From Escherichia coli (GTDB lineage: Bacteria; Pseudomonadota; Gammaproteobacteria; Enterobacterales; Enterobacteriaceae): a stretch of 64,000 bases of DNA. The position numbers were made by a program, and so were the translations under genes. The stretch lies in NCBI RefSeq assembly GCF_011045215.1, contig NZ_CP049201.1; one strand, given 5' to 3'. The notes beneath the pieces are model-generated. The model searched no databases, was not told where the DNA came from, and was given only the letters and a program-made list of their open reading frames with translations. Numbering within the stretch: the first letter of the stretch is position 1; each line of letters starts with the position of its first letter. Below are positions 28,946-34,975 of this stretch, piece by piece.

Positions 28946-29454
28946 TGACGGTAAAACGGATGTTTATGCTTTTATTCAGAGTGGTGATTGTCTGGCCGGC
29001 CATGCTGACGGGATGCCTGATGATGCTGTATTTCGCAGAGGTTGCCAGCGGTGGTGTGACAGGGCTGGCGCAGCGTTATGAGGCGGAGTCTGCCCGCTGG
29101 CGTGATGCGCCGGAAGGGGCGGTGATGATGCTCCGGTGTCCGTCGCGTCCCTTTGTGGTGCCGGTAACAACCGGGGAGTGGCGTGCACTGTCCGCCACTG
29201 ATGCAGAATGCCTCCGGGCACCGCGCTCTTTCAGGCAGGCTGCGGAGGCAGATTTTCAGTCACTGCACATACTGGCGCTGACACTGCTGCTGGCATCCGT
29301 GGTTCTGGAAGGCATTTCGGCCGGCATGTTGCGCCGGAAAACCGCATCCGTACCGGTATCACCACACTGTGGATGTGGCCGGGGCCGTGGTGCGGTTGCA
29401 CACTGGCCTGAGCGTGACAGTGATGCGACATCACAGAAGGGAGGCCCGGTATGA
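28942..29454 (+). CDS. hypothetical membrane protein (170 aa)
   Basis: Coupled ORF with two hydrophobic segments. Confidence 0.45.
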   Translation: MMTVKRMFMLLFRVVIVWPAMLTGCLMMLYFAEVASGGVTGLAQRYEAESARWRDAPEGAVMMLRCPSRPFVVPVTTGEWRALSATDAECLRAPRSFRQAAEADFQSLHILALTLLLASVVLEGISAGMLRRKTASVPVSPHCGCGRGRGAVAHWPERDSDATSQKGGPV

Positions 29455-29693
29455 CCGTTTCACTGCTGGCCCGTGTGCAGGCAAATGTTCCTTGCAAAAT
29501 GGCATCTGAATCGATCGCAGTTTGGCATTCGAATCGATCATGATTTGGCATCCATCTCCGATCACAGTTTGGCATCACAATCGATCACGATTTGGCATAC
29601 TTCCGATCATTGATTGGAATTCGCCAGTCACTCCGGGAATTAACTCTTTTCACCACAGTCTCCATTGCCGTGTTTAAACCAGTGGAGACGTCA

Positions 29694-32031: not shown

Positions 32032-32878
32032 AAAGCGGTAGAAAAAGTTAAGTTCCCGGTTGATCGAATGGATGCGAATCGCTGATCGAACTTCGATGCC
32101 AATCCGTGATCGAATAGAGCGGAATACGCATTCCTGTCTGGGCACATGAACAGCTGGCTGCATGGGATGCCGCAGAGTTTGCTGCAATGTCGGATTTTAT
32201 TACGGAACACTACTGGACGGGACAGGGCAGTATCAATGTGTACCGCATTGTGGGGACTGACCATCCACAGTATGCCGGAATGACCTGGCTGGAGCTGCTG
32301 GAGCGCGGTAAACGCATGGACATCAATATCCCGTTACTCGAAAAGAATCCGGGATATTACACGCAGGCTGAGCAACAGCATGCCGGGATGAGTTTTGTCA
32401 GCACGGATGGCATTCACTGGTATGTCAGTGCTGACGGTAATCACCGCAGCTGTCTGGCCCGCTTTCTGTTTCACCTGCAGGGGGAGGGGCGCACACAGCT
32501 TCACAATGTGGCCCAGAGTGTTTATCACACGGACCGGGAGTTCCGGTCTGCCTGTCGGGAGATTCACAACCTGACAGAACCGTTGTCCCGGCATGGTGTG
32601 TATCTTCGTCTGCAGACCCGGCGGCAGTGTGTTTCCCGCGAAGACCTGGCCTGCTGGAAAGTGGACCGTTTCAGAACAGAGGCGCAGCTGACAGTGGATG
32701 ACGGTCATGTCGGCGGACATGACGGGCCACCGGTGTATAAGGCATTACTGCTGAATGCGGCAGATGCATGGCGGGAGGTGATGGTGTTACAGCGCAGACT
32801 GGAGGTTCTGTCAGCGTCACCGGAGAACGATTTGCCGCGCTCATGGTGGTGGCGTCTTTTACAGAGAGGTACCCGGTC

Positions 32879-34975
32879 ATGAGTAACCGTTATGTGATTG
32901 AGGCCCTGCTGCGACCGGCGGTGGAGCTGAACACTGCCGTGGTGGCGGCAACGGCGGCCGGTGTCTGTGTGACAGCGCCCTGGGCGGTGGCGCTGGCCCC
33001 CTCTGTCAGTTATGCCACTGCCGCCGGTTTTGGCGTTCTGGCAGCGGTCCGTTTCCGCCAGGGAATGAAGGTCATCCGCTACCGTCGCAATCTGCGGCGT
33101 CTGCCCCGTTATGTGATGAGTACCCGGCAGATACCCGTGAGCCGTCAGCGCCTTTTTCTGGGGCGGGGATTTCGCTGGACACAGAAACACACCCAGCGCC
33201 TTCAGGATACGCTGCGCCCGGAGGTGGCCAGGTACCTTCAGCCGGGCTGGCTGTACCGGATGGCCCGTCAGCTTGAGCTGAAAACGGAGCATACCGTCCC
33301 CCGTCTGGGCGCACTTTTGCGTCAGGACTCTCCGCTGAATCCGGTACGCCCCCTGCCGCCGGTGGGCGGGAATCCGGCACTGCATGGTATTGAACCGGAT
33401 GAACAGGATGTGACGCTGGCGCTGGGAGAGAGGGTGGGACACACCATTGTTTATGGTACCACCCGTGTCGGTAAAACCCGGCTGGCAGAGCTGCTGGTCA
33501 CACAGGATATCCGCCGGGGAGAGGTCACCATTGTCTTTGACCCCAAAGGGGATGCTGACCTGTTGCTGCGTGTATGGGCAGAAGCACACCGTGCCGGCAG
33601 GGGCGATGAGCTGTATATCTTTCATCTGGGCTGGCCGGAAATCTCTGCGCGTTATAACGCAGTGGGGCGTTTTGGCCGGGTATCGGAGGTGGCCACCCGT
33701 GTGGCGGGACAGTTGTCCGGTGAAGGCAACAGTGCTGCTTTCCGGGAGTTTGCCTGGCGTTTTGTCAATATCATTGCCCGCGCCCTGGTGGCGCTGGGAG
33801 AACGCCCGGATTACACGCTGATTATGCGCTATGTGAATAATATTGCTGACCTCTATATTCGTTATGCCGGAAAGGTGGTCAGTGAACAGATGCCGGAACT
33901 GGAAAGCGCCATTCTGAATAACATGAATGTGCTGGGTGAAGATGATGTGCCCAGGACCATGCAGAACCAGCCGGATGCTGTGCGTATCTGGGCTATTGAG
34001 GTGGCGCTCAGCAGTGACGCCGGGAAGAAACTCTATGACCCGATACTGGATGGTCTTCGAAGTGCGGTACGTTATGACCGTACTTATTTTGACAAAATTG
34101 TGGCCTCCCTGCTGCCGTTGCTGGAAAAACTGACCACAGGAAAGACGGCAGAGCTGCTGGCACCGGACTACCTGGATATGAGTGATACCCGTCCCGTGTT
34201 TGACTGGGAACAGGTGATACGTAAAAAGGCGGTGGTGTATATCGGTCTTGATGCGCTCAGTGACAGTGAGGTGGCCAGTGCCGTGGGAAACTCCATGTTT
34301 GCAGACCTGGTGAGTGTGGCCGGACATATCTACAAACACGGTATGAATGCCGGATTGCCCGGTGCCGGGGAGAGTAAAAATGTGGTCAACCTGCACTGTG
34401 ATGAGTTCAACGAACTGATGGGCGATGAATTTATTCCGCTTATCAACAAGGGCGGTGGTGCCGGTATGCAGGTGACGGCGTATACCCAGACGTCTTCGGA
34501 TATTGAAGCCCGCATCGGTAATGCGGCTAAAACTGCCCAGGTACAGGGTAACTTCAATAACATGATTATGCTGCGCGTCAGGGAGAACCGGACGGCAGAG
34601 CTGCTGACCAGTCAGCTGCCTCAGGTGGAGATTTACACCAAAACACTGGTGTCGGGGCATCAGGATACCGCCGATGTGACGTCCGGCCAGGATTTCACCT
34701 CCAGCACCCAGGACCGCGTTGGCACAGTAAAGGTACCCTTACTGGAGCCGGCGGATATCGTCACCCTGCCAAAGGGGCAGGCATTTGCCCTGCTGGAAGG
34801 TGGACAGTTGTGGAAAATCCGGATGCCGCTGCCGGCGTCAGAGAAGGACGATGCGCTGATGCCGGAGAGTATTGCAAAAGTGGCTGAAGCCATGCGGCGT
34901 CATTACCACACCGGAGAGGGGTGGTGGCATGAAGCCCCGGCCGTGAATGTGCCGGAAGGAGACGGACATGGCTGA
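32879..34975 (+). CDS. traD: TraD/VirD4-like type IV coupling protein
   Basis: N-terminal TM segments, Walker A YGTTRVGKT and Walker B-like region. Start overlaps the previous stop. Confidence 0.8.
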   Translation: MSNRYVIEALLRPAVELNTAVVAATAAGVCVTAPWAVALAPSVSYATAAGFGVLAAVRFRQGMKVIRYRRNLRRLPRYVMSTRQIPVSRQRLFLGRGFRWTQKHTQRLQDTLRPEVARYLQPGWLYRMARQLELKTEHTVPRLGALLRQDSPLNPVRPLPPVGGNPALHGIEPDEQDVTLALGERVGHTIVYGTTRVGKTRLAELLVTQDIRRGEVTIVFDPKGDADLLLRVWAEAHRAGRGDELYIFHLGWPEISARYNAVGRFGRVSEVATRVAGQLSGEGNSAAFREFAWRFVNIIARALVALGERPDYTLIMRYVNNIADLYIRYAGKVVSEQMPELESAILNNMNVLGEDDVPRTMQNQPDAVRIWAIEVALSSDAGKKLYDPILDGLRSAVRYDRTYFDKIVASLLPLLEKLTTGKTAELLAPDYLDMSDTRPVFDWEQVIRKKAVVYIGLDALSDSEVASAVGNSMFADLVSVAGHIYKHGMNAGLPGAGESKNVVNLHCDEFNELMGDEFIPLINKGGGAGMQVTAYTQTSSDIEARIGNAAKTAQVQGNFNNMIMLRVRENRTAELLTSQLPQVEIYTKTLVSGHQDTADVTSGQDFTSSTQDRVGTVKVPLLEPADIVTLPKGQAFALLEGGQLWKIRMPLPASEKDDALMPESIAKVAEAMRRHYHTGEGWWHEAPAVNVPEGDGHG

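Follow-up and report, generated by a model that had tools for sequence, protein, structure and literature searches.

An IS21-family element, ISSso4, interrupts the gene that precedes traD in a chromosomal ICE of Escherichia coli

The window, which is the whole 64-kb stretch of E. coli DNA that was analysed, opens with the chromosomal genes cadA, cadB and cadC and continues as an ICE from parA, at about position 6440, onward. A fragment of tRNA-Phe marks the parA-side junction between the ICE and the chromosome, next to cadCBA, and no complete tRNA is present within the window (Table 1). The upstream part of the transfer operon is tightly packed and encodes PilL-N, a Tat-signal protein, TIGR03759, a lytic transglycosylase, DUF2859, an Mrr_cat-like protein and a 170-aa protein. 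These genes are followed by the two fragments of a 262-codon gene, separated by an insertion sequence, and then by traD and a gene for a TIGR03747-family inner-membrane protein.

Table 1. Coordinates of the features at the interrupted locus and at the ICE/chromosome junction (positions in the window).
Feature	Coordinates	Strand	Basis and remarks
tRNA-Phe 3' fragment, 49 nt	6292..6340	-	Identical to the final 49 nt of E. coli tRNA-Phe; between cadC and parA
Upstream transfer-operon genes	25086..29454	+	tblastn of VG35A2 ICE proteins, annotation, Pfam labels
5' part of the split gene, codons 1-14 (MTVSLLARVQANVP)	29451..29492	+	Strong Shine-Dalgarno GAAGGGAGG upstream
Left target-site duplication copy, TTCCT	29488..29492	.	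TTCCT occurs once at the empty site of VG35A2
ISSso4	29493..32130	+	Other copies match these coordinates only; same orientation as the operon
Left sub-terminal array	29510..29620	+	Five tandem 19-nt repeats (ATCGATCNNNNTTTGGCAT), 22-24 bp spacing, repeat family D2
istA transposase	29694 or 29724..31259	+	NCBIfam; protein identity to WP_000447022.1
istB AAA+ helper ATPase, 251 aa	31276..32031	+	NCBIfam; identical to WP_001282649.1
Right ISSso4 end	32061..32130	+	Three inverted sub-terminal repeat copies, terminal ...ACGCA; families D9 and D10, inverted pairs I1-I8
Right target-site duplication copy, TTCCT	32131..32135	.	TTCCT occurs once at the empty site of VG35A2
3' part of the split gene, codons 15-262 and stop	32136..32882	+	Overlap of its stop with the start of traD
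traD coupling protein, 698 aa, intact	32879..34975	+	TIGR03754, 1,090 bits; 99.0% identical over the full length to VG35A2 TraD
TIGR03747-family inner-membrane protein gene, intact	34968..35720	+	tblastn; overlaps the traD end

In a tblastn comparison with the proteins of the ICE in E. coli VG35A2, all compared proteins gave full-length single matches in the window except for the 262-aa protein, which matches from residue 13 onward only. The proteins present at full length include TIGR03745/47/49/50/51/52/56/57/58/59, RAQPRD, PFL_4703, the conjugative ATPase and TraG_N. Since all other compared proteins match over their full lengths, the insertion is the only visible lesion in the ICE backbone within the window, which covers one end of the ICE, the far end being located past position 64000 and the integrase and relaxase outside the window as well. 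The gene content indicates that the element is an ICE of the SPI-7/ICEclc type at a tRNA-Phe gene beside cadC. Similar to other ICEclc/SPI-7/PAPI-1-type ICEs, which carry an MPF_G T4SS, it contains a TraD of the TIGR03754 family, the TIGR037xx protein set, dnaB-PI, parA/parB, STY4528/STY4534 and topoisomerase III, and it shares with them the integration at the 3' end of tRNA-Phe, of which one end lies in the window. However, ICEclc lacks the three genes that this E. coli lineage has between DUF2859 and traD, namely those for the Mrr_cat-like, 170-aa and 262-aa proteins. Extra open reading frames at 7897-10413 and 60864-63527 gave no PADLOC or NCBIfam match.

The insertion sequence is ISSso4, a member of the IS21 family. 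A megablast search with the interval of the original prediction matched 516 plasmid records, while a wider interval matched 1,967 E. coli records, and the features under the matches were annotated as “IS21-like element ISSso4 family”. The name thus rests on near identity to copies that PGAP calls ISSso4. The copy on the Shigella sonnei pINV plasmid shares 2,637 of the 2,638 bases (99.96%), the sole mismatch being located at 29873, and its IstA (511 aa) and IstB (251 aa) proteins are identical to those encoded here. Because all of the full-length alignments to other copies start at 29493 and end at 32130, the length of the element is 2,638 bp, and its termini are TGCAAAATGG...GAATACGCA, i.e. 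5'-TG...CA-3'. The window holds a single copy.

The element has the two-gene layout of the IS21 family, with an istA gene for a DDE transposase followed by a co-oriented istB gene for an AAA+ helper, and both reading frames are uninterrupted, in agreement with what had been predicted. IstA scores 287 bits against the NCBIfam model NF033546 for IS21 transposases (cutoff 160) and IstB scores 252 bits against NF038214 (cutoff 200). The istA gene has two candidate starts, a PGAP-style start at 29724, which gives the 511-aa protein identical to WP_000447022.1 over its 511 aa, and a start at 29694, which gives a longer frame of 521 aa and is preceded by a GGAG Shine-Dalgarno sequence. The sub-terminal repeats noted in the original prediction are also present, as five 19-nt units on the left, which are presumed to be IstA binding sites, and as three inverted copies on the right (32061-32125), which carry the previously seen motif GATCGAAT/GATCGAAC. 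The family prototype, IS21 of R68.45, has in common with ISSso4 the istA-istB layout, a short target-site duplication and, at each end, multiple sub-terminal repeats (PMC10122671, PMC11208146).

A perfect 5-bp duplication, TTCCT, abuts ISSso4 on both sides, and this target-site duplication, which was not given in the original prediction, is confirmed by the empty sites of other E. coli ICEs. Its length, checked against the empty site, falls within the 4-8 bp range of the IS21 family. When positions 29493-32135 are taken out in silico, an open reading frame of 262 codons is regained, and the reconstructed gene aligns without gaps to the empty sites in E. coli RM11911 and VG35A2. The reconstructed sequence is contiguous in E. 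coli chromosomes, with 54 genomes at a coverage of at least 80% and a best identity of 98.3% in one piece. Eight further assemblies encode an identical upstream 170-aa protein, and in all eight it is followed by an intact 262-aa gene and then traD. These assemblies span the insertion site at 97.2-98.3% identity; the best alignment is gapless, and most have two small gaps. Copies of ISSso4 in S. sonnei pINV, Escherichia albertii plasmids and E. coli chromosomes have the same ends and a 5-bp duplication and differ only in the insertion site. Two other copies are flanked by the 5-bp duplications AATAA and ACTGG. One other copy is flanked by the 7-bp repeat CTCAGGC, which indicates that the duplication length is not strictly fixed.

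Since the TTCCT duplication and the empty-site alignment fix the junction, the insertion can be placed after codon 14, rather than after the ninth codon as predicted. The 5' fragment reads into the left end of ISSso4 and encounters a stop after 30 codons. The gene is thereby knocked out by ISSso4, its product being cut to a 30-residue fusion peptide. The remnant does resume downstream of the element and runs to its stop, as predicted, although it contains 248 codons (249 counting the duplicated CCT) instead of about 245. A TAG at 32115-32117 blocks in-frame entry into the remnant, whose earliest in-frame ATG, at 32187 (Met32), has no Shine-Dalgarno sequence and opens a 231-codon frame (32187-32882). 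A product restarted from Met32 would lack two residues, P14 and W16, that are invariant in the family to which the protein belongs.

The prediction that the element interrupts a genuine ICE gene lying immediately before traD was borne out. The frame is not without an intact counterpart, as at least 54 complete genomes of E. coli carry the 262-aa gene uninterrupted, and intact homologs occur in many ICEs of E. coli and Salmonella. In the E. coli genomes that have the intact gene, it is annotated as a 262-aa hypothetical protein between the 170-aa protein and traD, with an overlap of 4 nt with each neighbour. The homologs in Enterobacterales form 32 clusters at 90% identity, of which the closest contains 1,422 sequences, and a profile search of 1.84 billion representatives recovered 456 clusters at E <= 0.001 and 254 at E <= 1e-10. 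In addition to P14 and W16, the invariant residues of the family include the motif D114-G-N-H-R118 (DGNHR), and the 262-aa protein gave no sequence match in Pfam, NCBIfam or PDB. The interrupted gene is real and conserved.

The interrupted gene is a member of a large, uncharacterised family that occurs within conjugation clusters. One distant member adjoins genes for DotH/IcmK, TrbI and a prepilin peptidase, another sits between TrbC_Ftype and Peptidase_S26/TraF, and in a diverged ICE a member follows DUF2859 and overlaps a traD gene whose product is 56% identical to the TraD encoded here. Since the position upstream of traD is kept in this diverged ICE, the gene could matter for transfer in this lineage. 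In contrast, the T4SS of ICEclc is functional with DUF2859 (orf71178) directly before traD (iceD4) and no 262-aa gene between them (PMC10018362), and the gene is therefore accessory for ICEclc-type T4SSs taken as a whole. As ICEclc lacks the gene, the ICEclc deletion study was rejected as a source of a phenotype for it. The family is a mildly interesting by-product of the analysis, and the only one.

The insertion appears to be rare. Among 5,426 complete genomes of E. coli, none has the interrupted locus. One Logan contig, from the public read set SRR11014969, encodes precisely the 231-aa product of the remnant; it has an identical right junction and stops 30 nt inside the right end of ISSso4. 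The insertion is rare, its duplication is perfect and the element is nearly identical to other copies, which together indicate that the event was recent and is restricted to a lineage.

The effects on traD and on transfer are those that we infer from the arrangement of the sequence. The stop of the remnant overlaps the traD start in the ATGA at 32879-32882, as had been predicted, which suggests that traD may have been translationally coupled to its upstream neighbour, a coupling that would now be lost. Roughly 850 nt ahead of traD may be untranslated after the insertion. A Shine-Dalgarno sequence belonging to traD itself, AGAGAGG, precedes the start by 9 nt. No convincing intrinsic terminator was found on the + strand in or after ISSso4, and none after istB, and the terminator-like hairpins in a scan of 28300-33200 were weak only (at 29924 and 32832) and as many as expected by chance. 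Similarly, there is no Rho-favourable C-rich stretch after istB, as G exceeds C in every 80-nt segment between 32031 and 32880.

We consider it probable that a simple and recent transposition placed ISSso4 in an accessory gene of the pilL-to-traD operon, that the operon is read through, and that the ICE is attenuated or has an unaffected core rather than being dead. According to this reading, one simple transposition between codons 14 and 15 would have duplicated TTCCT, transcripts of the operon would probably pass through ISSso4 into traD and the TIGR03747 gene, and traD would be translated from its own Shine-Dalgarno sequence, with an expression that is probably lowered, not abolished. Read-through is probable because istAB is co-directional with the operon, istB lacks a terminator after it and the RNA beyond is rich in G rather than C, while a lowered expression of traD is probable because of the lost coupling and the longer untranslated RNA. 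Read-through, combined with the Shine-Dalgarno sequence of traD itself, would make it more likely that the ICE is attenuated, or that its core machinery is unaffected, than that it is dead.

A rather unlikely alternative is that the insertion exerts strong polarity, such that the expression of traD and the TIGR03747 gene, which is the last one exposed to any polarity, collapses and the ICE is transfer-dead and heading for decay. The overlap between the traD start and the upstream stop agrees with this, as does the lack of a Shine-Dalgarno sequence before Met32, which probably leaves the stretch ahead of traD untranslated, and a long untranslated stretch favours Rho-dependent polarity whatever the base composition. 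By analogy with ICEclc, in which iceD4 and orf68241, the counterpart of the TIGR03747 gene, are each essential and their deletion leads to a more than 100-fold loss of transfer (PMC10018362), such polarity would be expected to kill transfer. However, no intrinsic terminator follows istB, G exceeds C across the untranslated stretch, traD has its own Shine-Dalgarno sequence, and the other backbone genes are intact and thus give no sign of long-term decay.

It is very improbable that an outward or hybrid promoter at the right end of ISSso4 drives traD, as was raised in the original prediction. The right ends of IS21-family elements can hold an outward -35 sequence and form fusion promoters (reviewed in PMC9330008). 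Yet no sigma-70-like promoter with at least 9 of 12 matches was found in 28300-33200, a lenient scan (8 of 12) found none in 31760-32880, the nearest candidate being placed at 31729 inside istB, and the right flank, TTCCTGTCTGGGCACATG, offers no -10 hexamer. IS21 of R68.45 is a different element, and the right end of ISSso4 showed no sign of its junction and outward promoter behaviour.

The placement of the ends at TGTGC...GCACA in the original prediction, which makes the element ~2.7 kb long (~2,673 bp, ~29474-32146) and is suggested by a 5-nt inverted repeat, TGTGC/GCACA, that does flank the region, is refuted, since both arms are target-gene bases present in uninterrupted homologs and in the VG35A2 empty site, none of the full-length alignments of other ISSso4 copies reaches either arm or extends past 29493 or 32130, and these boundaries neither give a target-site duplication nor restore the reading frame.

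Insertion of IS elements into transfer operons is a routine route to the attenuation or immobilisation of ICEs. The event described here is an ordinary one, in which a known IS element entered an accessory gene of an ICE family that is also known, and it does not challenge current understanding. What is gained is one precisely mapped example, with the exact element, its 5-bp duplication and a documented empty site, along with a correction of the annotation, in which the locus should appear as a split pseudogene instead of a 231-aa open reading frame. In addition, the insertion draws attention to a natural mutant of an uncharacterised conjugation-associated gene family. It is possible, and we suggest it only tentatively, that the DGNHR family, found with at least three T4SS types, is a previously unrecognised accessory factor that works together with the coupling protein or acts on the DNA being transferred, in which case this strain would be its natural knock-out.

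The interrupted 262-aa protein, encoded directly upstream of traD and split by the IS21-family element ISSso4, belongs to a large, unnamed family comprising 456 clusters at 50% identity, as identified by a profile search of 1.84 billion representatives (E ≤ 0.001). The DGNHR motif is invariant in this family, for which no match was found in Pfam, NCBIfam or PDB, and the only fold hints, which are weak, are to ParB/sulfiredoxin-like proteins. Conjugation gene clusters of the IncI-like, F/H-like and MPF_G types all contain members of the family. The T4SS operon also includes an Mrr_cat-like gene, located two positions before the interrupted gene and absent from ICEclc. 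In PADLOC its product showed weak matches, with E near 1e-5, to a methyl-directed restriction enzyme of type IV.

Features in and around the ICE, with window positions except for the RM11911 copy
Feature	Position	Strand	Remark
cadCBA region	1-5700		apparently intact
tRNA-Phe 3' fragment	6292-6340	-	49 nt
Four ORFs	7897-10413		171-250 aa each
Segment of ~2.8 kb	7936-10761		between small hypothetical gene and dnaB-PI
ORF related to "saposin" protein	17504-18163	-	
PFL_4669-family ICE protein	19266-19943		57% identity to VG35A2 counterpart
Mrr_cat-like "restriction endonuclease"	28340-28945		201 aa, hydrophobic N-terminus
Interrupted gene, reconstructed	29451-29492 + 32136-32882		relatives at loci L011-L016
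Adjacent ORF pair	60864-63527		741 aa + 145 aa
Site in E. coli RM11911 (NZ_CP044313.1), related ICE copy	22427-24228 (locus L002)		

The tRNA-Phe fragment marks the ICE junction and adjoins cadCBA. This fits integration into the tRNA-Phe gene whose usual neighbor is cadC. No tRNA in the window is complete according to ARAGORN, so both the integrase end of the ICE and the intact copy of the tRNA must be located past position 64000.

The related ICE in E. coli VG35A2 lacks the ~2.8-kb segment, which may represent cargo or a variable module and whose four ORFs have no match in NCBIfam or PADLOC. Neither database gave a match for the adjacent ORF pair, which lies outside the region common to the window and VG35A2 and is probably ICE cargo. 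While the neighbors of the PFL_4669-family gene are 88-98% identical to their VG35A2 counterparts, the gene itself is far more divergent, which suggests a mosaic or recombined segment. The ORF related to the VG35A2 protein annotated as "saposin" gave several overlapping and offset matches to it, at 46-51% identity, indicating a divergent gene with internal repeats.

In E. coli RM11911, the left side of the related ICE copy is truncated by IS100, also of the IS21 family, within the ETT2 type III secretion region, and its TIGR03747 gene contains an internal stop. There are thus repeated IS hits and decay among the relatives of this ICE.
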